Source of the DNA: Patescibacteria group bacterium
GTDB taxonomy: Bacteria; Patescibacteriota; Minisyncoccia; Phycocordibacterales; JBHPGB01
Assembly (NCBI GenBank): GCA_042571085.1
Contig: JBHPGB010000003.1
Coordinates: 6,261 to 70,260 of the forward strand
Direction of reading: 5' to 3'
DNA length: 64,000 nt
Shown here: in pieces, positions 10,887 to 61,648 of the stretch
How positions within the stretch are numbered: the stretch's first letter is position 1
Layout: every line of letters starts with the position of its first letter
Program-made: the position numbers and the translations under genes
Notes under the pieces: generated by a model
Told to the model about the DNA's origin: nothing
The model's database searches: none
Seen by the model: only the letters and a program-made list of their open reading frames with translations

Positions 10887-12326
10887 CTATAGTTTGTTAA
10901 TTTTGAAGCTATCATCTAAATCCTTCACCTCGTATCCCATTTCAGCTATTTTGTCTCGTAATTCATCAGATTTTTTGAAGTCTTTCTCTTCTCGAGCTTT
11001 TTGGCGCTCTTGGGCCAGTGCTCCAACCTCCTTTGGAATATCTTCTTTGGTAGTTTTTTGAGTGGCGAGATTCAATCCAAGCACATGATCAAAATCTATG
11101 AGTGTGGCATATTTATCTGCCGGAGAAATTTCAGGGTTTTTTATAAGTTCCCACATAAGTGCAATTGCTTTTGGTGTATCTAGGTCATCATTTATCGCCT
11201 CGGTGAATTTTTCTTTGTAATCCTCATTTATTTTTCCAGACGTGTCGTCAATACTTGAAACAAATGTGTAAAGTTTTCCAAGTGCATTTTGTGCGGCCAT
11301 TAGAGAATCAAATGTGAAATTTATTTTTGTACGGTAATGAGCAGTTAATACTAAGTAGCGGTAGGCTAGGGGATCAAATTCTTTATCAGTAAGAGTTTTA
11401 AGTGTAATAAAATTGCCAGCAGATTTCGCCATTTTTTCTCCACTCACATCTACAAAATCACTGTGCATCCAATAATTTACGAAAGGTTTCCCTGTTGCTG
11501 TTTCACTTTGTGCAATTTCATTTGTGTGGTGTATAGGAATCAAATCAATACCACCTGTGTGTACATCAAAATTTTCTCCAAGATACTTCATACTCATTGC
11601 AGAACATTCTAAATGCCAACCAGGGAATCCTTTACCCCAAGGCGAATCCCACCCCATATCTTTGTTAAATTTCCCAGAAAACTTCCAGAGAGCAAAGTCT
11701 ATAGGATTTTTCTTTTCTGGATTTGTTTCCACACGAGCACCAGCTTTCAAATTATCTATATCAAGCTTAGCGAGTTCACCGTAATTGAGAGCTTGTGAAG
11801 TGTCAAAATACACACCGTCTGAAATAGTGTATGTTGCACCTTTTTCTTCCATGCGTTTTATAAGCTCAATTTGTTCTTTGATGTGCTCTGTTGCCTTTGG
11901 AAAAGTTTGAGGACGCTTTATATTAACAGAGTCTAAGTCTTTAAAAAATTCGGCTGCATAAAAATCGGCAACTTCTTTCATTGCTTCTAGTGTGATTGGT
12001 TTACCTTCGCGCTCCAGTGCCTTAGTCATTTTATCAATCCCTTCGTCGGCGTCGCTTGCCAAATGCCCAACGTCAGTAAGGTTCATTACTTGGTTCACTT
12101 CATACCCATTGTACTCAAACATTCTACGTAAAATATCAGCAAAAATATATGCACGAAAATTACCGATATGCGCGTAATCATAAACTGTTGGCCCACAATG
12201 ATACATACCAACCTTATTTGGTTGGAGTGATTTGAACCCTTCTTTTTCTCTGGTTAGAGTGTTGAATAATTGTATTTGCATAATTAACATAGTACCCGCC
12301 AAACTTTTGTTTCGCAAGCTCCACAA
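10887..12326 (-). CDS. cysS: Cysteinyl-tRNA synthetase (true start probably near 12281, at MQIQLFNTLT)
   Basis: HIGN (YAHIGNFRAY) and KMSKS (KMAKSAGN) class I motifs. Confidence 0.9.
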   Translation of the reverse strand: MWSLRNKSLAGTMLIMQIQLFNTLTREKEGFKSLQPNKVGMYHCGPTVYDYAHIGNFRAYIFADILRRMFEYNGYEVNQVMNLTDVGHLASDADEGIDKMTKALEREGKPITLEAMKEVADFYAAEFFKDLDSVNIKRPQTFPKATEHIKEQIELIKRMEEKGATYTISDGVYFDTSQALNYGELAKLDIDNLKAGARVETNPEKKNPIDFALWKFSGKFNKDMGWDSPWGKGFPGWHLECSAMSMKYLGENFDVHTGGIDLIPIHHTNEIAQSETATGKPFVNYWMHSDFVDVSGEKMAKSAGNFITLKTLTDKEFDPLAYRYLVLTAHYRTKINFTFDSLMAAQNALGKLYTFVSSIDDTSGKINEDYKEKFTEAINDDLDTPKAIALMWELIKNPEISPADKYATLIDFDHVLGLNLATQKTTKEDIPKEVGALAQERQKAREEKDFKKSDELRDKIAEMGYEVKDLDDSFKINKL

Positions 12327-12339
12327 AACTTAGGCGGGT
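12294..12339. terminator. Hairpin ACCCGCCAAAC-[variable core]-AACTTAGGCGGGT between corA and cysS
   Basis: Same arms as 1902..1947. Confidence 0.55.
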
Positions 12340-24483: not shown

Positions 24484-25611
24484 CTACTTCTCGTGTTTTA
24501 GTGCGAGGTTAAGGATTTCGCGGGCTATTTTTTCTCCGGCATCTGGGCGGGCAAATTCTTTTGCAGCTTGCTTCATTTCTTCTCTTGTATTTTCGTCGTC
24601 CATAAGTCTATCAATTGATGACATGAGCACATGTGGACTAAGATTTTTTTCTTCCACAACTAAACACGCTCCGCTTCTGGCATAAGTAAATGCGTTGCTG
24701 CGTTGATCGTGACTTATCTCCTCTGGGATTGGAATAATAATACTTGGTAAGCCCCAAGTAGCGATTTCAAATATAGAGGATCCGGCACGCGATATTACAA
24801 CATCAGAAATACCAGCAGACATCTTCATTGCAAGGTCGTTTAGATATTCAAAAGGTTTGTATCTATTTTTGTTTGGTGAGTCTTGCAGTATCACTGAAGC
24901 TGTACCAGAAATTTCTTTAAAGTGTTCTTTTCCTGTTTGGTGTATAACTTGATATTTTTTTACTAGCTCAGGCAATACGCCAAGTATTGCCTCATTTATT
25001 CTTTGTGCACCTTGTGATCCGCCGAGTATTAAGATAACAGGAGTTTGTTTTTCTAATTTCAAAAACTCATGAGCACCACTTGTTTGTGGGATTGAAATAT
25101 TTTTACGTATTGGATTTCCTGTGAGCGCGACACGATCTTCTGGGAAATATTGTGCTGCATCCGGATATGAAACCGCAATTCGTTTTGCAAACTTCCCTGC
25201 CCACTTATTTACTTTTCCGGGCTTTGAATCAGATTCATGTATGATTACTGGAATTCCTAAAAAGCGAGCAGCGAAAAGTGTCGGAAAGCTACCGTAACCC
25301 CCTTTGCCGAATACTACGTCAGGGAAGATTCTATACAATTGCCACGTTGCTTTAATGATTCCTGTTGCTGTTTTAAAAATATCAAAGAAGTTTTTGATTG
25401 AGAAATGTTTACGAACTTTACCAGCTGGAGCTTGTTTGAATTCTATACCGTGCTCAAAAAGCTCTTTTTTATCATATGGATTAGGTGCAACAAAATACAT
25501 TTGTGTTTCCAACAAATGTTCTTTTGATGCCAGTTCATTTATTTCTTCAGCTATTGCGATAATTGGATAAAAGTGTCCACCTGTACCGCCACCTGTAAAT
25601 AGAATTTTCAT
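24484..25611 (-). CDS. murG: UDP-GlcNAc:undecaprenyl-PP-MurNAc-pentapeptide GlcNAc transferase MurG
   Basis: 375 aa; GGTGGH N-terminal motif; GT-B fold; follows ftsW. Confidence 0.9.
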   Translation of the reverse strand: MKILFTGGGTGGHFYPIIAIAEEINELASKEHLLETQMYFVAPNPYDKKELFEHGIEFKQAPAGKVRKHFSIKNFFDIFKTATGIIKATWQLYRIFPDVVFGKGGYGSFPTLFAARFLGIPVIIHESDSKPGKVNKWAGKFAKRIAVSYPDAAQYFPEDRVALTGNPIRKNISIPQTSGAHEFLKLEKQTPVILILGGSQGAQRINEAILGVLPELVKKYQVIHQTGKEHFKEISGTASVILQDSPNKNRYKPFEYLNDLAMKMSAGISDVVISRAGSSIFEIATWGLPSIIIPIPEEISHDQRSNAFTYARSGACLVVEEKNLSPHVLMSSIDRLMDDENTREEMKQAAKEFARPDAGEKIAREILNLALKHEK

Positions 25612-25726
25612 CCCGTTAGAGATAGGAAAGATAATTTCCGTATCTGATTATGTGTTGTTAAAAAATTGACCAAAATCTCGCCATGTTCCATTTTGCCACA
25701 AAAGACAGCTTGGATCTCTAACGGGA
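25611..25726 (-). mobile_element. TIR element copy A (116 bp): 13-bp terminal inverted repeats TCCCGTTAGAGAT; TGAA/TTCA 4-bp direct repeats at 25607..25610 and 25727..25730; abuts the murG start codon
   Basis: Both ends read directly from the sequence. The terminal A of the element plus the duplicated TGAA rebuilds the murG ATG. Confidence 0.55.
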
Positions 25727-28938: not shown

Positions 28939-29490
28939 TTAAGCCACTTCCTCTTCTTCCTCTTTTTGTTCTTCAAAACTCTCTATTTCCACTTTCACAT
29001 TTTCATAATCTGGCAGCTCTGTAATATCTGTTATACCAAGATGAGCGAAAAGTTCAAATGTTGGTTTGTATAGAAAGCTTCTTTGGTCTTCAGGGTTGCT
29101 CGTGCGTTCAACAAGTCCGCGCACCATCAAGTTGCGTAGAATGAAGCCTGAGTTTACACCACGAATGTAGTCTACCCTACTTTTTGCAATTGGTCCGAGA
29201 TATAAAACTATAGCAAGTGTTTCCAGACCTGCTTTACCCAAGTCTTTGTTCAGCTCTTCTTTTACGAGCGCTTCAATAATGTCTCCAAATTCAGGAGCAG
29301 TACCAATCATAACCACATCGTCTTTTTTAATTAATCTTATTCCCCTGTCGCTTAGGCTTTCTTTCAATTCAGAAACAGCATTAAGAGCATCTTCTTCTTG
29401 CACGCTCAACATAGCAGCCAAATTTTTTATTTTTGTTGGCCCGTTTTGGTAAAAAAGTATTGCTTCTATTTTTTTTGATAATTCATTCAT
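28939..29490 (-). CDS. scpB: Segregation and condensation protein B
   Basis: 183 aa; two winged-helix repeats; adjacent to scpA. Confidence 0.85.
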   Translation of the reverse strand: MNELSKKIEAILFYQNGPTKIKNLAAMLSVQEEDALNAVSELKESLSDRGIRLIKKDDVVMIGTAPEFGDIIEALVKEELNKDLGKAGLETLAIVLYLGPIAKSRVDYIRGVNSGFILRNLMVRGLVERTSNPEDQRSFLYKPTFELFAHLGITDITELPDYENVKVEIESFEEQKEEEEEVA

Positions 29491-29659
29491 CCCGTTAGAG
29501 ATAGGAAATAAAATTTCCGTATCTGATTATGTATTGTTAAACATTGATCAAAATCTCATTATATTCCATTTTGCCATAAAAGACAGTTTGGACCTGCCCG
29601 CCACTGCCTAATTCGTCCCAAATGTCAGTCAGGCGATGGCAGGCGGGTATCTAACGGGA
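29490..29659 (-). mobile_element. TIR element copy B (170 bp) carrying a nested 57-nt GC-clamped hairpin module; TTCA direct repeats; abuts the scpB start codon
   Basis: Same ends as copy A; insertion CCTGCCCGCCACTGCC...GGCAGGCGGGTA at about 29596..29652. Confidence 0.55.
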
Positions 29660-30780: not shown

Positions 30781-31455
30781 TTAGATTTTCTCAGCGTTTT
30801 TTACGTCAAAGTCCCCTACTTTTGTGCGACGCAGCTCTTTGATTGTAGCCGGTACGCCGAGCCGACGGCCGATTTCTTCAGCAATAGAACGGATGTATGT
30901 TCCAGATGAAACATCTAATCTTATTTGCAAAACCACCTTATTGTCCACTTGTTTGGTGTCCAGTAGGTCAATACTTTTTATTTCCATTTTTTTAATTGGT
31001 GCTTCCACATCTTCTCCACGGCGAGCTTTTTTATACAGTGCCTCCCCTCCTCTTTTGATTGCTGAATAAATTGGTACAGGTAATTCGAGCACACCAACCA
31101 AACCATTTAGAGTTTCACCAAGCTTGGTAGAGATTGAATTTATATCAACCGACTCCTCTTCAAGAATTTCACCTTCCATATCTCCCATATTAGTTTTTAT
31201 GCCAAGCAACACCTCTGCCTCGTATTCTTTATCTAATCCAATTAAATCTTTTAGTTGTTTTGTCCCTTTTTCTATACCAATGATTAAAAGCCCGCTTGCG
31301 AGCGGATCTAAAGTGCCTGCGTGGCCCATCTTGCGTACGTTAAGTTTTTTACGAAGCCTGCGGATTACATCAAAAGAAGTAATACCTTTAGGCTTGTCTA
31401 TTAGAATTAAGTTTTCTGAATCCATATTTCTAGTGTGCCATGTCGTGTTGTTCAT
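30781..31455 (-). CDS. truB: tRNA pseudouridine(55) synthase TruB
   Basis: 224 aa; catalytic-Asp motif GHAGTLDPLASGLL. Confidence 0.9.
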   Translation of the reverse strand: MNNTTWHTRNMDSENLILIDKPKGITSFDVIRRLRKKLNVRKMGHAGTLDPLASGLLIIGIEKGTKQLKDLIGLDKEYEAEVLLGIKTNMGDMEGEILEEESVDINSISTKLGETLNGLVGVLELPVPIYSAIKRGGEALYKKARRGEDVEAPIKKMEIKSIDLLDTKQVDNKVVLQIRLDVSSGTYIRSIAEEIGRRLGVPATIKELRRTKVGDFDVKNAEKI

Positions 31456-32608
31456 TTATCAGTGTAACAAATAATGTTGCCACTGCAGCAAATATGAAAA
31501 TAAATTTTATGCTAAAGAAAAATGAAATTATAAATGCAATACCAATCATTAATATCCTCCCAATATTTAGTGACATTTCTCGTAATACAGTATATTCGTC
31601 CACATAATGTCCATTATCTGCAGCTTGGTCATATTGTGTTGTATCAACAGATGTGCGATGTATTACTCTACCTACATTGTGGTATGTGTCTGCGATAAAA
31701 ACCTGGAATGCTGTTTCTATGAAAAGTTTAACAATCCATCCTGTGGTGTTAAATATTGATCCAATAACTACCATACGTTTTTGATTCCAGGTATCAAGTA
31801 AATTTCCAATGAAAGTTCGTATTATTATAATTGCAAAAATTGTTAATGAGGATACGATACCTACTGTGAGATATTTTTCATCAAATAGCATGAATATAAA
31901 AATAGGCCATATTATTGCTGATACAATACTTTGAAACCCATCAGCAGTGAATGCTATAAACATACCCCTGTTTTCTTTGTGAAAAAGTTTTTTGAAAGTT
32001 TCCAAGTACCCCCAACTATAATGTTCTCGTGTACTTTCTATAAAAAAAGCTGGAATTATACTGAATAAAAACAAAAAGGCTGAAACAAGGAAAGCTCCAC
32101 TGAAAGTGAAATATGCAATCAGTGCGCCACCGACAAATGGCATTATTGTACCTATTATTTGAGCAATATTACGAAGAAGAGAGATTTGTCGACCACGAAT
32201 GTCTTCGTCGGTAAATTTTGCAAAGTCTACATGATATGGAAGCCAGTATAATAATTTATATATAATAATTGCTAATGTGAATATGACAAGAATAAGATAA
32301 GGGTTATAATCCCAAAAATATAGAGAAAAAATTGATATTAGAGCGAAAGGTACCGCAATTATCATCATTTTTTTTAGGCTAAAGCTGTTTAATATTCTTG
32401 ATGCAATTGGATATAAAAAAAGGACCAAACCAAAATTTATTGCATAGATGATGAGAACTGCTGTGAAAGAATTATCAAATTTTGTAAAAAAGAATATTGG
32501 TAGGAACAATCCAATTACTCCAAACGCAGCCTGTAGTAAAACGCGCCCAGTGTATAGCCAGGCAAGATTTTTTGATATTTTTAAATTTTTGTAATCAAAC
32601 AATTTCAT
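31430..32608 (-). CDS. Polytopic membrane transporter (MFS-like), hypothetical
   Basis: 392 aa; about 12 TM helices. Confidence 0.45.
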   Translation of the reverse strand: MKLFDYKNLKISKNLAWLYTGRVLLQAAFGVIGLFLPIFFFTKFDNSFTAVLIIYAINFGLVLFLYPIASRILNSFSLKKMMIIAVPFALISIFSLYFWDYNPYLILVIFTLAIIIYKLLYWLPYHVDFAKFTDEDIRGRQISLLRNIAQIIGTIMPFVGGALIAYFTFSGAFLVSAFLFLFSIIPAFFIESTREHYSWGYLETFKKLFHKENRGMFIAFTADGFQSIVSAIIWPIFIFMLFDEKYLTVGIVSSLTIFAIIIIRTFIGNLLDTWNQKRMVVIGSIFNTTGWIVKLFIETAFQVFIADTYHNVGRVIHRTSVDTTQYDQAADNGHYVDEYTVLREMSLNIGRILMIGIAFIISFFFSIKFIFIFAAVATLFVTLINEQHDMAH

Positions 32609-32778
32609 CCCGTTAGAGATAGGAAATGTAATTTCCGTATCTTATTAATGGTAAATTGATTATGTATAAATATTTTATCAGTTTCCCGCTTGCCACAAAA
32701 GACAGTTTGGACCTGCCCGCCACTGCCTAATTCGTCCCAAATGTCAGTCAGGCGATGGCAGGCGGGTATCTAACGGGA
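32608..32778 (-). mobile_element. TIR element copy C (171 bp) with the same nested hairpin module as copy B; TTCA direct repeats; abuts the start codon of the transporter gene
   Basis: Nested module 32716..32772 is 100% identical to that in copy B. Confidence 0.55.
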
Positions 32779-32785
32779 TTCATTT

Positions 32786-33058
32786 TTATGCGCAAATAGT
32801 ATTTTTATATCCTGGAAAATAATTTTGTATTTCTTTTAAATTAAACTCACTTAAGATTTGCTCCGCCGCTTCCCTCTCAAGCAGAAACTCAAATGATTTT
32901 TCTATTAATTCTTCCGGTGTTATTTTACCATTTGATAGTTTAGCATAATAATCTTTATCTAGTACGACGGTATGCTTTGTTTTGTCGGAAATCTTTACTT
33001 CAAAAGTGAAATGTTCTTCATTCTCATCAATTTTTTGTATTTGCAGATTGTGAGTCAT
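32786..33058 (-). CDS. Hypothetical protein (90 aa)
   Basis: ORF only. Confidence 0.4.
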   Translation of the reverse strand: MTHNLQIQKIDENEEHFTFEVKISDKTKHTVVLDKDYYAKLSNGKITPEELIEKSFEFLLEREAAEQILSEFNLKEIQNYFPGYKNTICA

Positions 33059-34741: not shown

Positions 34742-35040
34742 ATATAGACGTGAAAAATGCCAGAGCAAGCTCCGACATTCTTCAGTGTAGTCACCTCCCG
34801 GAGGAGATAACTACCCTTTTATTATATTCAATATTGAAATCTGGTCAATACTTTTTGTAGATAATTGTGGATAACTCCCAGTGCCTATTCTTTGTAATCT
34901 GACTATTCCACCAGACGTGAAAAATGCCAGAGCAAGCTCCGACATTCTTCAGTGTAATTATTTTCCCGGAGGAAAACAATTACTCTCCTAATATATCAAT
35001 TTCTGAGATTCGCGCAAGTCCTATTTTCAATAGAGTATAA
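34742..35040 (+). repeat. Family-2 composite repeat, locus 1 (unit1 plus unit2; each unit begins with the invariant 42 nt AGACGTGAAAAATGCCAGAGCAAGCTCCGACATTCTTCAGTG)
   Basis: About 90% identical to 37322..37652; unit2 is also present alone at 39198..39372. Confidence 0.7.
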
Positions 35041-35046
35041 ATATTG

Positions 35047-36717
35047 TTATTTGTCAAATTCAGGTAAAAATAGCCTTGCGATGCGTAACTCTTCAAATGA
35101 GTATTTTTCTTTGAGTGCTTTGTATACTGGTGAGAGTTTTGTGTCTCCAGATTTTAGAAAAGCCTTGTGCATTTCCATGAGCGCTTTTTGTTTTGGTTTA
35201 AATGTACTTAAATCAAGCTTTGGATCTTTCTCTTTTAGTTTTTCAAGATGCCCAAGGATGGTGTTTTCAACCACCCCTCTCTTCTTTGCTAGTTGTTTTA
35301 AATTTAATCCCTTTTCTATCAGAAGTCTTGTCTTTTCATATGTAGAGATTTTCTCTTCAACCTTGTCTACTTTTTTATTCTTATTTTTCTCGATTTCTTT
35401 TTTATTTATAGTACCCCCACATTTAAGCACAAAATCGTTGTGCATTTTTTCCATATCTCCATCAGAAAAACGACCTATTACCTTACTCCACTTTTCAGAT
35501 TCTTTTAGAAGGTGTTCATTGATTTGAGCCACTCTTGGGTGCACTGCGAAAGCCATTTCGTTTATACCAGAAAGAAGAAGACCTCCGAGCGTGCGTAGAC
35601 GCGAGAGAGCCACGTATCCTTGTCCTGGCACGAAAGATTTAGACAAATCAATTTCTGCTGCATCCATACTCAAGCCCTGGCTTTTGTGTATCGTAATTGC
35701 CCACGCAAGCCGCAGTGGCAATTGCTCCACCATGCCTAGCACTTTCCCATCCTCCTCAACAGACCATTCCGAAGGTGAAACATGAATTAGTTCACCGGAA
35801 AAAGTTTTGACTACTGGCATGCCATCTTCAAAACCTTTTACAACACCAAGCGTGCCGTTAACGTATCCTTCCTCAAAATTGTTTTTTATAAACATCACCA
35901 CCGCGTCCTTCTTTAGTTTGAGTGTTTCGGATGTCAAAATACTCTTTTTGAGTGAGCTTATGATAGTGGCCCGCCCTTTTGAAGACATCTCAAATTTATA
36001 CTCTGTGCCTGGTAGCTTATCCAATTCTTTTTGATTTAGCTCGTCTACATCGGCATTGTGAGTATACAGGCGCGTCGGTGTGATGTTTCCTTTTATGCTC
36101 GTCTGCTCAGAAAGAATATTACGCGTTTTGTCGCTCACAGAGCCGCCTCGTATTTCATTCAGGATACTTTCTAAAGTACTGTCACCTTGGCGAAATTGTT
36201 CCTCTAAATAACAGACACGAACATCCATTTCTCTCCACGCCTCTGATGCGATAGCGAATTCTGGCTCAGTGTATCCGCGTACAATTGGCGGCAATTGAAA
36301 GAAGTCACCCGAAAGCACCACCTGCATCCCTCCAAACGGCTCAGGGTTACGTTTCATCGCTTTACACACCCTGTTTACATTATCTAGCAGCTGCGGTGAA
36401 AGCATGGAAACCTCGTCTATTAAAAGTATCTGTGTTTTTTCAAACCTGGTCCACAGGTGCTTCTTTCCCTCCATTGAATCCAAATCCATTTCAGATATGT
36501 GTTCTTTAATACCAATGCCACTCCATGAGTGAATGGTGGTGCCTCCTATATGAGTCGCCGCGATACCCGTTGAGGCTGTCACACCGATACTGACTCCCCT
36601 ATCTTTTAAATATGAAATATACTCATTTAAAACATGAGTTTTACCACTACCGGCGGCCCCTGTCAGATATACGTTTCTACCAGCCTTTAAAATTTTTAAC
36701 GCTTCGGCTTGTTTCAT
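35047..36717 (-). CDS. SF1B DNA helicase (PIF1/RecD-like) with C-terminal HTH-like tail
   Basis: 556 aa; Walker A GAAGSGKTH, Walker B LLIDEVSM, GDFFQLPPI, ITIHKSQGLS. Confidence 0.7.
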   Translation of the reverse strand: MKQAEALKILKAGRNVYLTGAAGSGKTHVLNEYISYLKDRGVSIGVTASTGIAATHIGGTTIHSWSGIGIKEHISEMDLDSMEGKKHLWTRFEKTQILLIDEVSMLSPQLLDNVNRVCKAMKRNPEPFGGMQVVLSGDFFQLPPIVRGYTEPEFAIASEAWREMDVRVCYLEEQFRQGDSTLESILNEIRGGSVSDKTRNILSEQTSIKGNITPTRLYTHNADVDELNQKELDKLPGTEYKFEMSSKGRATIISSLKKSILTSETLKLKKDAVVMFIKNNFEEGYVNGTLGVVKGFEDGMPVVKTFSGELIHVSPSEWSVEEDGKVLGMVEQLPLRLAWAITIHKSQGLSMDAAEIDLSKSFVPGQGYVALSRLRTLGGLLLSGINEMAFAVHPRVAQINEHLLKESEKWSKVIGRFSDGDMEKMHNDFVLKCGGTINKKEIEKNKNKKVDKVEEKISTYEKTRLLIEKGLNLKQLAKKRGVVENTILGHLEKLKEKDPKLDLSTFKPKQKALMEMHKAFLKSGDTKLSPVYKALKEKYSFEELRIARLFLPEFDK

Positions 36718-37321: not shown

Positions 37322-37652
37322 CTATAGACGTGAAAAATGCCAGAGCAAGCTCCGACATTCTTCAGTGCAGCTACCTCCCGGAGGAGATAACTACCTTTCT
37401 ATTATATTTAATATTGAAATCTGGTCAATACTTTTCTGTGCATAACTGTGGATAACTACCAATGCCTATTCTTTGTACCCTGACTATTTCACCAGACGTG
37501 AAAAATGCCAGAGCAAGCTCCGACATTCTTCAGTGTAATTATTTTCCCGGAGGAAAACAATTACTCTCCTAATATATCAATTTCTGAGATTCACGCAAGT
37601 CCTATTTTCAATAGAATATAAATATAAAAATATGTCAAATTTAGACAAAATG
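37322..37652 (+). repeat. Family-2 composite repeat, locus 2 (unit1 plus unit2) between engB and pyk
   Basis: Direct copy of locus 1. Confidence 0.7.
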
Positions 37653-39092: not shown

Positions 39093-39197
39093 AAACTATT
39101 ATTTGTTTGATTAATATAAAAAAATAAAAAGGCGCCATTGGCGTCATTTTTACTCCCCACTTGTTATTTGACTAACCTGGTGTTCATGTGCAAATCC

Positions 39198-39372
39198 GGG
39201 CGTGAAAAATGCCAGAGCAAGCTCCGACATTCTTCAGTGTAATCATTTAATTATTTCCCGGAGGAAACAGTTAAACAATTACTCCCCTAATATATCAATT
39301 TCTGAGATTTGCGCAAGCCCTATTTTCAATTGAGTATAAATATCAAAATATGTCAAATTGAGGTAAGTTTAG
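39198..39372 (+). repeat. Family-2 repeat, locus 3 (unit2 type only)
   Basis: Invariant 42-nt head plus a conserved tail TATATCAATTTCTGAGATT..GCGCAAG.CCTATTTTCAAT.GAGTATAAATAT. Confidence 0.65.
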
Positions 39373-55182: not shown

Positions 55183-57564
55183 CTAATTTGTGACGATACT
55201 CACTAGTTTGTTCGGTACACATATCACCTTTTTCACATCCTTTTCTTCGGTCCATTTTTTGACAGATTCAAGCTCTTGTGCCTCTTTTTTAACCATTTCC
55301 TCATTGCTATCTGCCTCGATTTCAAAGGTTCCTCGTATTTTTCCGTTCACTTGTACAGCGATCGTGACTGTCTTATCCATAGTCTTACTTTCATCGTATT
55401 CAGGCCATTCTTCAAGATGGATTGATGTGCTGTTTCCTAATTCCGCCCATAATTCTTCTGTTATGTGTGGTGCGAATGGAGCAAGTAATTTTAGAAAGTT
55501 TTTATATTGTGTTTGATTAATTTCTTGACGCTCAGCTTGATTCACAAAAATCATCATTTGTGCAATTGCTGTATTGAATTTCATTTGCTCAAGATCCTCA
55601 CCAACTTTTTTAATAGTTTGATTTAAAACAGTTTCAGCATTTGCCTCATCGGCATGTTCTGATGTCTTATCCTTCAGCTTCCACACACGTTCCAAAAATC
55701 GATATGTCCCAACAATGTTATCTTCTTTCCACATAACGTCTTCTTCAAGCGGGCCTGCAAACATCATATACATACGCACTGCGTCAGCACCAAATTTTTC
55801 TACCATTGTCTCTGGATTCACAACATTACCTTTAGACTTACTCATTTTCTTTCCTTTCTCATCTAGGACCATTCCTTGGTGTCTTAGTTTCAAAAACGGT
55901 TCGTCAAAATTAAGTACCCCGATTTTATTAAGTGCTTTAGTAATAAATCGTGCATACAAAAGATGCATATATGTATGCTCCGCCCCACCGATATATGTAT
56001 CCACAGGTAGCCAGTGTTTGAGCCTCTCTTTTCCACAAAATTCTTTTTCATTGTGCGGATCAGGATATCTCAAATAATACCAAGATGAACATACAAATGT
56101 ATCTAGAGTATCAACCTCTGGTGTCCACCCTTCACCAAATATTTTTTCAGTGCGATCAAAAAGCTCTTTTGATTTTGCCAGTGGTGCTGTACCTGTTGGC
56201 ACAAAATCAACATCCTCTGGCAAAAGCCACGGCAGATTTTCTTCACCGACAAATTTTGCCTCACCTTCTGGAGAATACACAATCGGAATCGGCGCTCCCC
56301 AATATCTTTGACGTGAAATAGACCAGTCACGAAGGCGGTATGTATTTGTTAATTCCCCGCCTACAAATTCGGTGATTTCTTTTTTGGCTTCAACAACACT
56401 CTTTCCGTCAAATTTGCCAGAATTAATTAGTTCCCCGTCACCAACGTACGCTTCTTTTGATATATCCCCGCCAGAAATAACCTCCGTAATTGGTAAATCA
56501 AACTTCTTTGCAAACTCAAAATCACGTTCATCGTGTGCTGGCACGGCCATAATTGCCCCTGTTCCGTATCCAGCAAGCACGTAATCAGCAATAAAAATTG
56601 GTATTTCTTCTTGATTAGCAGGATTTATTGCTTTCACACCTTTTAATTCAACTCCAGTTTTTTCTTTTCCTTCCATTCTTTCTAGTTCAGTCTTTTTCTG
56701 TACACCTTCAAGATATTTTTCAACCTCACCCCAGTTTTCAATAGTTTCTTTGAGCCCTTGTACTAATTCATGTTCAGGCGCAAGCACACAGTAAGTACAG
56801 CCAAACAAAGTATCTGGTCTTGTAGTAAACACTTCCATTTCTTTGTCAGTATTTGAAACTTTGAATTTTAATTTTGCTCCCTCCGATTTTCCTATCCAGT
56901 TTTTTTGATTTACCTTTGTATGTTCTGGCCAGTCCACCTTACCCAGTCCATCGATTAAGTCATCAGCGAAATCAGTGATTTTGAAAAACCATCCGGGCAC
57001 TTCTTTCATTACCACTTCACTTTTACAGCGCTCGCACGCACCATCTTCCACCTGCTCATTAGCAAGAATTGTTTTACAGGATTCACACCAGTTTGTAAGA
57101 CTAGTTTTTTTGTATGCCAGATTGTTTTCAAAGAGTTGAGCAAATATCCACTGTGTCCATTCATAATACTCAGGGTTTGATGTCACTACCTTCTCATCGA
57201 AATCATAATTAAAGCCAAGAGACCTCATTTGTTTAATATAGTTTTCAATATTTTTTACAGTGGTTTCTTTTGGGTGTACTTTTGTTTTTATCGCATAATT
57301 TTCTGCAGGTAAACCAAAAGAGTCAAAACCTTGCGGATGGAGCACATTAAAGCCATTCATTTTTTTATAGCGGTAATAAATATCACTCGCAGCATAACTT
57401 TCTGTGTGGCCCATATGTAGTCCGTCTCCAGATGGATATGGGAACATATCAAGTAAATAATACTTTTCTTTTGAAGTGTCATCTTTATCGATTTTTGCAA
57501 CAGTATCCTTCTCCCATTCCTTCTGCCACCTTTCCTCTATTTTTTTATGATTATATTCTTTCAT
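55183..57564 (-). CDS. leuS: Leucyl-tRNA synthetase
   Basis: 793 aa; HMGH and KMSKS motifs; CP1 editing domain. Confidence 0.9.
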   Translation of the reverse strand: MKEYNHKKIEERWQKEWEKDTVAKIDKDDTSKEKYYLLDMFPYPSGDGLHMGHTESYAASDIYYRYKKMNGFNVLHPQGFDSFGLPAENYAIKTKVHPKETTVKNIENYIKQMRSLGFNYDFDEKVVTSNPEYYEWTQWIFAQLFENNLAYKKTSLTNWCESCKTILANEQVEDGACERCKSEVVMKEVPGWFFKITDFADDLIDGLGKVDWPEHTKVNQKNWIGKSEGAKLKFKVSNTDKEMEVFTTRPDTLFGCTYCVLAPEHELVQGLKETIENWGEVEKYLEGVQKKTELERMEGKEKTGVELKGVKAINPANQEEIPIFIADYVLAGYGTGAIMAVPAHDERDFEFAKKFDLPITEVISGGDISKEAYVGDGELINSGKFDGKSVVEAKKEITEFVGGELTNTYRLRDWSISRQRYWGAPIPIVYSPEGEAKFVGEENLPWLLPEDVDFVPTGTAPLAKSKELFDRTEKIFGEGWTPEVDTLDTFVCSSWYYLRYPDPHNEKEFCGKERLKHWLPVDTYIGGAEHTYMHLLYARFITKALNKIGVLNFDEPFLKLRHQGMVLDEKGKKMSKSKGNVVNPETMVEKFGADAVRMYMMFAGPLEEDVMWKEDNIVGTYRFLERVWKLKDKTSEHADEANAETVLNQTIKKVGEDLEQMKFNTAIAQMMIFVNQAERQEINQTQYKNFLKLLAPFAPHITEELWAELGNSTSIHLEEWPEYDESKTMDKTVTIAVQVNGKIRGTFEIEADSNEEMVKKEAQELESVKKWTEEKDVKKVICVPNKLVSIVTN

Positions 57565-57680
57565 CCCGTTAGAGATAGGAAATAAAATTTCCGTATCTGA
57601 CTAATTATTAATTCTTTATGTATGGATATTTTACTTAATTCCCGTAGTGTCATAAAAAACAGTCTGGATCTTTAACGGGA
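57564..57680 (-). mobile_element. TIR element copy D (117 bp); TIRs TCCCGTTAGAGAT / ATCTTTAACGGGA; TTCA direct repeats; abuts the leuS start codon
   Basis: Read directly from the sequence. Confidence 0.55.
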
Positions 57681-60613: not shown

Positions 60614-60715
60614 ATCCCGTTAGAAATTTTTGTTTCTTTCTACTCCATCAAGATTTACCATTGGGTTTAACGGGTTCACTTATTAAAAAATTATAAATAT
60701 AAAATTTCTAACGGG
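60614..60715 (+). mobile_element. TIR element copy E (divergent, inverted orientation): 15-bp TIRs TCCCGTTAGAAATTT / AAATTTCTAACGGGA, with an internal TIR-like GGTTTAACGGG; abuts the start codon of the plus-strand BASS-like gene
   Basis: Flanks tgca / tgaa; the terminal A plus TG again rebuilds the ATG. Confidence 0.45.
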
Positions 60716-61648
60716 ATGAAAATTTTAAAAACAATTAGAAAATTTACTGAAAATCATTTCATTATTGTTGGCTTGGCTTTAGTACTCGGTGTTTTATATG
60801 GAAACTATTTAGCTCAATATGCATATTTGAGTACCACATTACTTGCGGCTATTTTCTTTTTGAGTTCACTTAAGATTGATTTGAAGAAAGTGAGACAGTA
60901 TTTAGGAGATAAATTAGTGCTTGCTATAGTAAACATATTCATGCTTTTTATTTTGCCTGTTGCTGTTTATTACGTAACAAATGCAATATATCCGACACTT
61001 GCAATCGCATTTCTTTTGCTTGCAGCAATGCCAGCGGGAATGACAGCACCACTTCTTGCAGAGATTAGTGGAGGTAAACAAAGCTTAGCTCTTGTGCTGA
61101 CAGTTACAACTTCACTCTTAGCACCAATTACTGCACCATTCATAATTAAAACAGTTGCCGGTGCGCAAGTTGATGTAAGTTTTTGGGCAATGTTTACCAC
61201 TTTGGCTATTGTGATTTACATTCCATTTATTTTTGCTCAGATTATCAAACGATTTTGGCAGCGTGCAATTGATAAAGTCGCGATTTCATTCAAACCAATT
61301 TCTGTAATTTTGCTCGGACTTTTAATTATGGTTGTAATTGCAAAACAATCCGACGCAATTATAGATGGATTCAAAAACGGCGATGAATCAATAATATATC
61401 TTGTCGCCCTATTTATTTTCTTTTTGATACTACATGTTCTCGGCCACATAACTTCCTTTTGGAAAAAAAGAGACGAACGCATCACGATCACCGTGTGCCT
61501 CACATATATGAACTTCACACTTGCTATAGAATTGGCCAATAAATTCTTCACAGAGCCTAATATTGTAATACCGGTCGTGTTCTCAGTGATACCGTGGGCG
61601 ATTATGCTTATTCCATATAAACGCATCATGCAAAAAAAGACCAGTTAA
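60716..61648 (+). CDS. BASS-family (bile acid:Na+ symporter-like) membrane transporter
   Basis: 310 aa; about 9-10 TM; size and topology typical of this family. Confidence 0.5.
   Translation: MKILKTIRKFTENHFIIVGLALVLGVLYGNYLAQYAYLSTTLLAAIFFLSSLKIDLKKVRQYLGDKLVLAIVNIFMLFILPVAVYYVTNAIYPTLAIAFLLLAAMPAGMTAPLLAEISGGKQSLALVLTVTTSLLAPITAPFIIKTVAGAQVDVSFWAMFTTLAIVIYIPFIFAQIIKRFWQRAIDKVAISFKPISVILLGLLIMVVIAKQSDAIIDGFKNGDESIIYLVALFIFFLILHVLGHITSFWKKRDERITITVCLTYMNFTLAIELANKFFTEPNIVIPVVFSVIPWAIMLIPYKRIMQKKTS

Follow-up and report, generated by a model that had tools for sequence, protein, structure and literature searches.

Why does the start codon of a transporter gene coincide, to the nucleotide, with the end of a repeated sequence? 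The question is raised by a 64,000-nucleotide stretch of a Patescibacteria group bacterium genome (contig JBHPGB010000003.1, positions 6,261 to 70,260; "the window" hereafter), in which a 171-nt element that we call copy C abuts a gene for a major facilitator superfamily (MFS) transporter. A sequence-only reading of the window had placed an element with terminal inverted repeats (TIRs) at 32608-32778, and both its coordinates and its description are correct on direct reading of the sequence. We conclude, with a probability of roughly 0.8, that copy C belongs, as a non-autonomous form with an internal deletion, to a family of very small mobile elements found in the candidate phyla radiation (CPR)/Patescibacteria, that it resembles a miniature inverted-repeat transposable element (MITE), and that it later acquired a second palindromic repeat. 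Two points go beyond the sequence-only reading: copy C is an internally deleted derivative of an element that encodes a GIY-YIG nuclease, and its position on a start codon is the rule across the family and not a peculiarity of this copy.

The plus strand around copy C reads ...aaacaaTTTCA/TCCCGTTAGAGATAGGAAATGTAATTTCCGTATCT...CCTGCCCGCCACTGCC...GGCGATGGCAGGCGGGTATCTAACGGGA/TTCATttttatgcg (read over 32400-33000; slashes mark the element boundaries), and the minus strand, which is the gene strand, reads ...TAA aa ATGAA/TCCCG...CGGG/ATGAAATTG. The MFS start codon is the complement of CAT at 32606-32608, and its A is supplied by the terminal base of copy C; the start of the open reading frame (ORF) at 31430-32608 (-) bears out the proposal that this ATG is rebuilt from the terminal A of the element and the TG of the duplication. 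The TTCA repeats at 32604-32607 and 32779-32782 are the target-site duplication (TSD) that they had been taken for, in that the variable flank bases of related copies match on both sides. The distal ATGAA lies 2 nt past the stop of an upstream 90-aa ORF and now opens a short upstream ORF (uORF), MNPVRYPPAIA, that ends in a stop. In full-length elements the gene strand of the proximal repeat, ATCTCTAACGGGA, codes for ..LSLTG. All three sense frames of copy C yield fragments only; the LSLTG frame is open over the entire element, but lacks an ATG. The distal repeats of copies C and B are shortened and carry two mismatches (TCCCGTTAGATAC) because a nested module directly adjoins them. The sense RNA of copy C is predicted to fold into a TIR stem, a palindrome hairpin and a conserved hairpin (-59.5 kcal/mol, z = -4.6).

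Two simpler functions were considered for this sequence. We looked for a sigma-70-like promoter site within copy C and found none, and an outward promoter inside the element was rejected on that ground. A scan of the window with Rfam 15 returned one tRNA at the gathering score and nothing else, the best sub-threshold matches having E-values of about 1 or more; a riboswitch or other known structured RNA was rejected for lack of a match at either the gathering or the E-value threshold.

Copy C is one of five elements in the window. The 13-nt terminal repeat, with up to 2 mismatches allowed, occurs 10 times versus 0.87 expected, a count that none of 100 shuffles reached, and the 10 occurrences are the two ends each of elements A to E. 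In the alignment of A-D, the TTCAT pentamers are the exact limits of similarity. All five copies occupy start codons, compared with 30 of the 115 ATGA sites that lie outside gene interiors (p about 0.001). Copies A-C are found 2-8 nt downstream of a preceding stop codon, and the ancestral ATG of copy E has a TATAAT box 6 nt upstream. The family accounts for five puzzling gaps of 100-175 nt within the operons of the window.

Orthologous sites date the insertion. The nearest relatives of the transporter are P0122, at locus L184 (74% identical), and P0123, at locus L185 (66%). The gene order at L185 is that of the window (Na/Ca exchanger, MFS, TruB ... ScpA, ScpB), and its MFS site is empty: the sequence ...gtaTAGagaaaATGAATTTATTT contains a single ATGAA, 5 nt past the upstream stop. 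The L185 scpB site, which corresponds to copy B, is likewise empty. At L184 a short element sits exactly at the MFS ATG, with an interior recognisably orthologous to that of copy C (...CCAGACTGTATTTTGTGGCAAAGCGGGG...) and without the nested palindrome. From the empty L185 site and the palindrome-less L184 element it therefore follows that the element came first and the palindrome later, in the window lineage. These results show that insertion at the MFS gene took place after the L185 split and before the L184 split, and that the nested palindrome entered afterwards. In a second assembly (L125, 99.8% identical) copies B and C are both unchanged. The murG site is empty at L098, holds a 278-nt form at L120 and a 116-nt form in the window. 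The suggestion that B and C might mediate deletion or inversion of the segment between them finds no sign in these comparisons, as gene order is kept in L125, L184 and L185; the two copies are also closer than the 6 kb that had been given, at 3,118 bp.

The family extends far beyond this organism. A scan of one genome per species with the 25 specified bases of the hairpin end returned four loci, in Candidatus Saccharibacteria, Candidatus Paceibacteria, a "Patescibacteria group bacterium" and an "uncultured bacterium". All four have the same architecture and abut a start codon; the elements at L001 and L004 lie between the pheS stop and the ATGAA of pheT, and two of the four loci carry CTCAT...CTCAT (ATGAG) in place of TTCAT. 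Metagenome contigs scanned with an 18-mer yielded at least 120 loci, and the family tallies given below rest on the loci listed. Copies were sampled by element sequence alone and are therefore unbiased as to their flanks. Element lengths cluster at about 115-123, 190 and 275-285 nt. We found no description of such an element in open-access papers and bioRxiv, and the family, which is very widespread in CPR/Patescibacteria, is apparently undescribed.

CAT directly adjoins CCCGTTAG in 88 copies, and in 75 of these it is the ATG of an ORF of at least 60 aa, against a background in which just 25% of the ATGAA pentamers in the same loci precede 60 open codons. Four of the remaining CAT-flanked copies run off the contig, and the others include the 38-aa rpmJ and tandem-element junctions. 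Judged by eye from N-terminal sequences, the hosts are unrelated housekeeping genes, namely murG, pheT (three times), rpsS (twice), rplQ, rpmJ, lepA, typA, recR (twice), ssb (twice), prfA, metG, proS and gpmI. Orientation is also biased, with 86 copies co-directional with the host gene and about 7 reversed, although the short forms contain no ORF. Exact 5-nt flank repeats are present in 61 of 86 copies (TTCAT 46, TCCAT 8, CTCAT 4, CGCAT 1, TACAT 1), at least 15 of which have variable bases other than TT that are matched on both sides. Since these flank bases differ from host to host but agree between the two sides, the repeat is a true duplication. The base before CCCG and the base after CGGG covary (T/A 97, C/G 21, other 3); these terminal bases are therefore part of the inverted repeat, which leaves 4 bp for the duplication. 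Together, these results show that T/A-terminated elements insert at A^TG(A/G)A (the caret marks the insertion point), leaving the ancestral ATGAA upstream while the terminal A rebuilds ATGA(A) downstream.

The 60 reconstructed targets of the T/A class conform to ATG(A.83/G.13)(A.92/G.08) in AT-rich surroundings, and to no more than that. A richer target motif was rejected, since the logo of the 60 sites contains only ATG(A/G)A and AT-richness, with a Shine-Dalgarno (SD)-like motif at 3 of 60. The C/G-terminated copies are not on ATGs; they often lie 4-16 nt upstream of a co-directional gene and have exact 4-bp duplications of TTTA (five), TAAA (two), CTTA, CCTG and TAAG. At three distant contigs (L017, L035 and L071) a full-length C/G nuclease element is found 6-9 nt upstream of the tpiA ATG, with a TAA stop drawn from the TTTA/TAAA duplication; at this gene either insertion was recurrent or the element has long been retained.

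The full-length element is approximately 275-285 bp long and is bounded by the inverted repeats (T/C)CCCGTTAGAGAT...ATCTCTAACGGG(A/G) and a 4-bp target duplication. In 31 copies of 273-284 nt we found an ORF that runs in the direction of the host gene downstream. It is the only gene of the element and specifies a GIY-YIG nuclease of 86-87 aa, of the UPF0213/SLX1 type, with the consensus MFYTYxLKSxKxGRxYTGSTNDLRKRFxQHNxGKSTWTKxxGPWxLIYYEACLNExDARSREKYLKSGMGKRYLKNRLKRFLSLTG. It matches the Pfam family PF01541 (GIY-YIG) with E = 2e-15, and its closest solved relatives by sequence (phmmer) are the UPF0213 protein BH0048 (1zg2, 3e-8) and SLX1. An AlphaFold (AF2) model has a pLDDT of 92.7, and Foldseek searches with this model retrieved 1zg2 and several Slx1 structures (TM up to 0.66), followed by I-TevI and the UvrC N-terminal domain. 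The invariant residues include Y3, Y5, Y16, G18, R26, H30 and E50, which we take to correspond to the catalytic positions of the GIY-YIG active site. From its sequence and model, the family ORF is thus predicted to have the GIY-YIG fold and the catalytic Tyr, Arg, His and Glu of the UPF0213/SLX1 type. Pairwise dN/dS among 26 nuclease copies has a median of 0.157 (207 pairs) and a maximum of 0.38. These coding-sequence comparisons show that the ORF is under purifying selection, as a predicted functional GIY-YIG nuclease. The protein database contains at least 2,525 clusters of it (90% identity; 86 or 95 aa), and their annotations go no further than "GIY-YIG nuclease family protein", "putative endonuclease" or "excinuclease ABC subunit C". 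Among the matches listed, where an annotation sourced from NCBI names an organism, it is nearly always from a CPR group (Giovannoni-, Taylor-, Terry-, Sung-, Davies-, Nomura- and Lloydbacteria among them) and in a few cases just "bacterium"; most clusters are nameless.

The nuclease reading frame is built into the ends of the element. Its last codons, CTA TCT CTA ACG GG(A/G), are the gene-proximal inverted repeat and code for LSLTG, and 100 of 120 database proteins among the matches listed end in FLSLTG. The element itself lacks a stop codon, and the flank supplies TGA or TAA as the next triplet in 18 of 18 T/A long forms, and at start-codon sites the TGA supplied in this way forms an ATGA stop-start overlap with the host gene. 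Among the C/G long forms the next triplet is TAA or TGA in 7 of 12. Nine copies lie at ATGGA, where no stop would form, and all nine are short forms. At the other end, the distal repeat that follows the ancestral ATGAA reads AAT CCC GTT AGA GAT (NPVRD). About one third of the nuclease genes have the ancestral ATG joined in frame to the nuclease (M[NS]PVRDxxxM...); among the long copies this fusion is seen in 7, and an M[NS]PVRD start is found in 33 of the 42 database proteins of at least 93 aa among the matches listed, mostly of the 95-aa class. In the non-fused long copies a uORF of 6-7 codons stops a few nt before the nuclease ATG. Nuclease clade also tracks the terminal base: the "GKV..STK.RGPF" clade occurs in 12 of 12 C/G elements and the other clade in 14 of 17 T/A elements.

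Short forms, including A-D of the window, lack the ORF segment that is enclosed by a conserved, covarying stem. Their stem, AGGAAAY-loop-RTTTCCGT, is the long-range stem GGAAACGCTTTAA...TTAAAGCGTTTCC of the long forms, both arms of which code for K-R-F. The length enclosed by the GGAAAY/RTTTCC arms is 138-160 nt in the long forms, about 72-75 nt in the class of about 190 nt and 1-6 nt in the short forms. The first pair beyond GGAAA/TTTCC is C:G in 64 copies and T:A in 43, with other Watson-Crick pairs in 3, G:T in 1 and no mismatch; the stem-arm extensions are of 54 distinct kinds. The short form at L037 still reads as the nuclease N-terminus joined to the C-terminus (MFMSCKIQSKRLYIGFTGDLRKRF). 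At the level of sequence, these results show that the short forms are deletion derivatives of the long forms. Copies A and B, which lie at different genes, are 84% identical in their non-coding interiors, and C and D 70%. Near-identical 194-nt copies are found at two different genes in L013 and L039, and metagenomic subfamilies with the same hairpin and interior lie at unrelated genes; the GGAAATCTTTAGATTTCC group, for example, is found at rpsS, lepA, an OMP-decarboxylase-like gene and others. Because interiors are shared at different genes, we conclude that the short forms multiply as such.

The nested module of copies B and C was said to be identical, and it is, at 56 of 56 nt, although the surrounding elements are only 68-79% identical. 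It was also read as a nested, secondary module; it is in fact an independent palindromic repeat, being free-standing in an intergenic region of L001 (4441-4504) and absent from the orthologous L184 element, as it is from copies A and D. It also occurs directly beside an element terminus in the unrelated metagenome contig L030 (2937-2965). The nested palindrome is a separate small repeat family with an apparent liking for this position, and its identity in B and C suggests recent site-preferring insertion or gene conversion. Because it shortens their distal repeats, B and C are probably crippled, and copy C is probably no longer mobile. A 16-mer of the palindrome gave 58 uninspected matches to viral contigs, which by a rough estimate is about the chance level for a GC-rich 16-mer.

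Table 1. Copies of the element family, parts of copy C and related subfamilies. Positions refer to the window unless another locus is named.
Feature	Position	Strand	Description
Copy A	25611..25726	-	Short form, murG start codon
Copy B	29490..29659	-	scpB start codon; nested palindrome at 29593-29648
Copy C	32608..32778	-	171 nt: short form of about 115 nt with a palindrome of 56 nt nested in it; strand as for the host gene and the ancestral nuclease frame
Copy D	57564..57680	-	Short form, start codon of a 793-aa leuS-like ORF, assigned from N-terminal sequence alone
Copy E	60615..60716	+	Diverged subfamily (9-nt termini), TIR CCCGTTAGAAATTTT, no hairpin; start codon of an SBF-family transporter gene
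Copy C, gene-proximal 4-bp TSD	32604..32607	+	TTCA; gene strand TGAA, bases 2-5 of the MFS ATGAA
Copy C, gene-proximal TIR	32608..32620		TCCCGTTAGAGAT; T32608 is the A of the MFS ATG
Copy C, conserved sub-terminal hairpin	32617..32642		AGATAGGAAAT-GTA-ATTTCCGTATCT
Copy C, variable internal segment	32643..32711		Degenerate sequence left from the 5' part of the nuclease gene
Copy C, nested palindrome	32712..32767		GC-rich, imperfect, 56 nt; CCTGCCCGCCACTGCC...GGCGATGGCAGGCGGGT, beside the distal TIR
Copy C, distal TIR	32768..32778		Shortened to ATCTAACGGGA; canonical form ATCTCTAACGGGA
Copy C, distal TSD copy	32779..32783	-	TTCA + T; gene strand is the ancestral start codon ATGAA
Host gene of copy C	31430..32608	-	MFS transporter, 392 aa, PF07690
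Subfamily with 9-nt termini	L184 728-829		Na/Ca-exchanger ATG
Subfamily with 9-nt termini	L005 1034-1152		
Subfamily with 9-nt termini	L024 3188-3301		
Subfamily with 9-nt termini	L046 1490-1600		
Subfamily with 9-nt termini	L099 1905-2000, 2057-2173, 5741-5847		Three within 4 kb
Subfamily with 9-nt termini	L069, L091, L101		

Copy C has the features of a MITE: it is 171 nt long without a complete coding sequence, has the TIRs TCCCGTTAGAGAT and ATCT(CT)AACGGGA and a TSD, and its site is empty at L185. The family has five copies in 64 kb and more than 120 elsewhere, and longer relatives that encode the GIY-YIG nuclease share its ends; none of the long type lies in the window, and these relatives would have the mobilising role. 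The elements are similar to known bacterial MITEs such as the Neisseria Correia elements, pneumococcal RUP and the Rickettsia palindromic elements (RPEs) in being short, non-coding and multi-copy with TIRs and a TSD, in having strongly folding transcripts, and in adjoining or lying inside genes with which they are co-transcribed. Like RPEs, they are tolerated where the host ORF stays intact. They differ from these MITEs in three respects. The related full-length element codes for a GIY-YIG nuclease and not for a DDE transposase; the target is the start codon A^TGRA, with the ATG rebuilt, whereas Correia and RUP elements duplicate TA and RPEs lie in frame inside ORFs; and the family spans many CPR lineages and is not limited to one genus.

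The full-length element also recalls the free-standing GIY-YIG homing endonuclease genes (T4 seg/mob; I-TevI-type). Both are small selfish genes with a GIY-YIG nuclease as the sole product, lying between host genes in the same orientation, using host expression signals and doing little damage to the host. Homing endonucleases have an added DNA-binding domain (I-TevI has 245 aa), whereas here there is a bare catalytic domain of 86 aa that is nearer to UPF0213/SLX1 than to I-TevI. Moreover, homing endonuclease genes have neither TIRs nor TSDs and spread to the cognate allele, in contrast to a family with TIRs and TSDs at hundreds of unrelated genes. Copy C was therefore rejected as such a gene: it has no ORF, and it has TIRs, a 4-bp duplication and relatives at many unrelated targets. 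The best sequence and fold matches of the nuclease are UPF0213 (YhbQ/BH0048) and SLX1. UPF0213 proteins are regarded as products of ordinary chromosomal genes without an assigned role; SLX1 works with SLX4 in eukaryotic repair. Unlike the family nuclease, neither has been described inside elements with TIRs and TSDs or tied to start codons. Finally, palindrome-associated transposable elements (PATEs) derived from IS200/IS605 are likewise small, with a sub-terminal hairpin, and the TTCAT at both ends of copy C could pass for their fixed pentanucleotide. IS200/IS605 elements have no TIRs and make no duplication, whereas the family here has duplicated flank bases derived from the host and a covarying 13-nt TIR. 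We rejected the PATE reading of TTCAT...TTCAT on the grounds that the flank bases are duplicated from the host and that the inverted repeats are true ones.

How might such an element move, and why to start codons? On the boldest reading, the parent family would be a class of its own among prokaryotic transposons, perhaps the smallest that is autonomous (about 280 bp), in which a bare SLX1/UPF0213-like nuclease would recognise branched or cruciform DNA of its own repeats. It would live on start codons, borrow host initiation, return the ribosome through the ATGA overlap and spawn MITE-like derivatives across the CPR. We consider this broader proposal about evenly balanced between right and wrong. 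SLX1 cuts branched DNA, and the family nuclease would act on the termini of the element, or on the branched or cruciform DNA that its 13-nt repeats and internal stem form, and would thereby mobilise both long and short forms. Translation from the ancestral ATG would open the TIR stem and be relayed to the host ATG by termination-reinitiation. Such a relay would leave the start codon as the only site that is both safe and expressed: insertion in the stretch that separates the ATG from the promoter or the upstream stop would abolish initiation, and insertion on the ATG would keep the initiating ATG in its old context, with the host ATG at a stop-start overlap or behind a stem opened by the ribosome. 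Features of the host fit into this picture. An SD-like motif is present in just 10 of 65 window genes, and TANNNT lies 5-8 nt before the ATG in 23 of 60 window genes, versus 8.5% of all ATG triplets, a pattern suggestive of an organism in which leaderless mRNAs and re-initiation independent of SD sequences predominate.

Several observations weigh against this account. We know of no GIY-YIG enzyme that acts as a transposase, a 4-bp duplication is not explained by a hydrolytic nuclease alone, and a separate, unseen enzyme could move both forms. A tblastn search with the nuclease found no intact nuclease gene in the 64-kb window. The target ATG(A/G)A does not by itself account for the start-codon rule, and target-like sites are commoner outside start codons than at them. 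A -10-like hexamer at the right spacing occurs at 14 of 60 targets, compared with 23 of 60 window genes; since such hexamers are not commoner at targets, targeting of the open promoter bubble of leaderless genes was rejected. The LSLTG frame is open for at least 30 codons in only 14 of 59 short forms, and its lack of an ATG in copy C weighs on the relay idea. A universal small-ORF relay through the short forms was rejected, as the frame is open in A, C and D but not generally. Finally, some host genes recur across distant lineages with perfectly kept element ends (pheT and tpiA three times each, rpsS twice, murG, recR and ssb), which could mean long retention under host-level selection instead of pure selfishness.

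The orientation bias and the recurrent host genes thus leave room for host-level selection, in which the elements would have been domesticated as leaders. Once-mobile short forms would now be kept by the host as cis-acting 5' leaders or inter-cistronic structures, and the TIR stem and hairpin, ending at the AUG, would control translation re-initiation or mRNA stability for many housekeeping genes in hosts of the SD-less, leaderless type. Such a role would suit the constant length of the short forms (114-123 nt), with perfectly conserved ends and hairpin around an interior free to vary, as well as the return of the same host genes in distant lineages, the 86 to about 7 orientation bias of forms that include ORF-less ones, the strong fold of the copy C sense RNA (z = -4.6) and the openness of the LSLTG frame (at least 30 codons in 14 of 59 short forms versus 2 and 0 in the other frames). 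Conserved ends are equally expected of actively transposing MITEs, however, and the flank duplications, empty orthologous sites and intragenomic paralogs point to insertion and not to an ancestral leader. The host genes are functionally unrelated, reversed copies exist, and copies C and B tolerate a 56-nt insertion within the structure. There is no Rfam match, and no strand-specific G-U signature is evident by eye (uncounted), the right-arm variants including some that wobble on either strand. We therefore regard domestication as unlikely.

Two further explanations keep the insertion and change what moved. Each short copy could be the wreck of a full-length element that inserted at that very site and decayed there, so that no short form ever moved. 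The short form is indeed the long form minus the segment enclosed by the stem, which hairpin-mediated slippage could delete repeatedly; the short forms at L037 and L046 still read as the nuclease N-terminus, and the start-codon position would be inherited from expressed long forms. This is hard to reconcile with interior identities of 84% (A/B) and 70% (C/D) at different genes, with metagenomic subfamilies (the GGAAATCTTTAGATTTCC group; L013/L039) at unrelated genes, or with the nine copies at ATGGA, where a long form would have no stop and all are short; we give it very little credence. Alternatively, the short forms could be ordinary MITEs of a conventional transposon (DDE, for instance IS1380-like, with CC ends and a 4-5-bp duplication) that lies elsewhere in these genomes, and the GIY-YIG ORF a passenger or addiction gene that some copies carry. 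A TIR with a 4-bp TSD is the typical product of a DDE transposase, and a GIY-YIG transposase is, to our knowledge, without precedent. Among about 125 loci, however, none was seen to hold a longer element that combines these ends with a transposase gene (five copies without a recognisable right end within 3.5 kb, L053, L055, L065, L102 and L112, lie outside this check). The nuclease ORF is also built into the ends, in that one TIR encodes its C-terminus, the other is joined to its N-terminus and the target provides its stop, and nuclease clades covary with the terminal base. We judge a conventional parent to be quite improbable, and retain the interpretation of copy C as a MITE-like derivative of the nuclease-encoding family.

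Several observations lie beside this argument. The 90-aa ORF at 32786-33058 (-), between the Na/Ca-exchanger gene and copy C, is a lineage-specific insertion without a Pfam match: at the syntenic loci L184 and L185 it is missing, and the exchanger gene there directly precedes the MFS gene or its element. Many further subfamilies share just the 9-nt termini (T/C)CCCGTTAGA...TCTAACGGG(A/G) with the elements described here; their inner repeats differ yet are complementary (e.g. GCCGCGATCGC/GCGATCGCGGC), and they are flanked by ATGNN duplications at gene starts (Table 1). Tandem or nested arrays are found at L030 (2738-2965), L046 (1490-1730), L069 (1127-1290), L025 and L092. In these, one element is inserted at the regenerated ATGAA of another, and the "host ORF" starts with MNPVR.... 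The window also contains two 46-nt intergenic palindromes, at 1902-1947 and 12294-12339 (ACCCGCCAAACTTTT...AAAACTTAGGCGGGT), whose GC-rich feet resemble those of the nested module and which may be terminators or another small repeat family. Repeat units of about 330 nt lie between minus-strand genes at 34743-35069, 37323-37650 and 39196-39366. Each has one or two copies of the 53-nt motif GACGTGAAAAATGCCAGAGCAAGCTCCGACATTCTTCAGTGTA, followed by short hairpins of the CCCGGAGG type, and none has an Rfam match.

Genome annotation is affected as well. Thousands of CPR entries for an "excinuclease ABC subunit C" or a "GIY-YIG nuclease family protein" probably belong to this element, gene calls of 95 aa join a host start codon to the nuclease, and gaps of 115-280 bp before many CPR genes are insertions and not promoters. 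If the nuclease moves the elements, an SLX1-like GIY-YIG enzyme would join the DDE, HUH, serine and tyrosine recombinase and Cas1 catalysts of transposition, and an autonomous element of under 300 bp would be defined. The start-codon rule is a striking fit of a selfish element to the translation of its hosts, which is SD-poor and often leaderless in tightly packed operons, and the element could serve to study re-initiation in CPR bacteria, almost all of which are uncultured.

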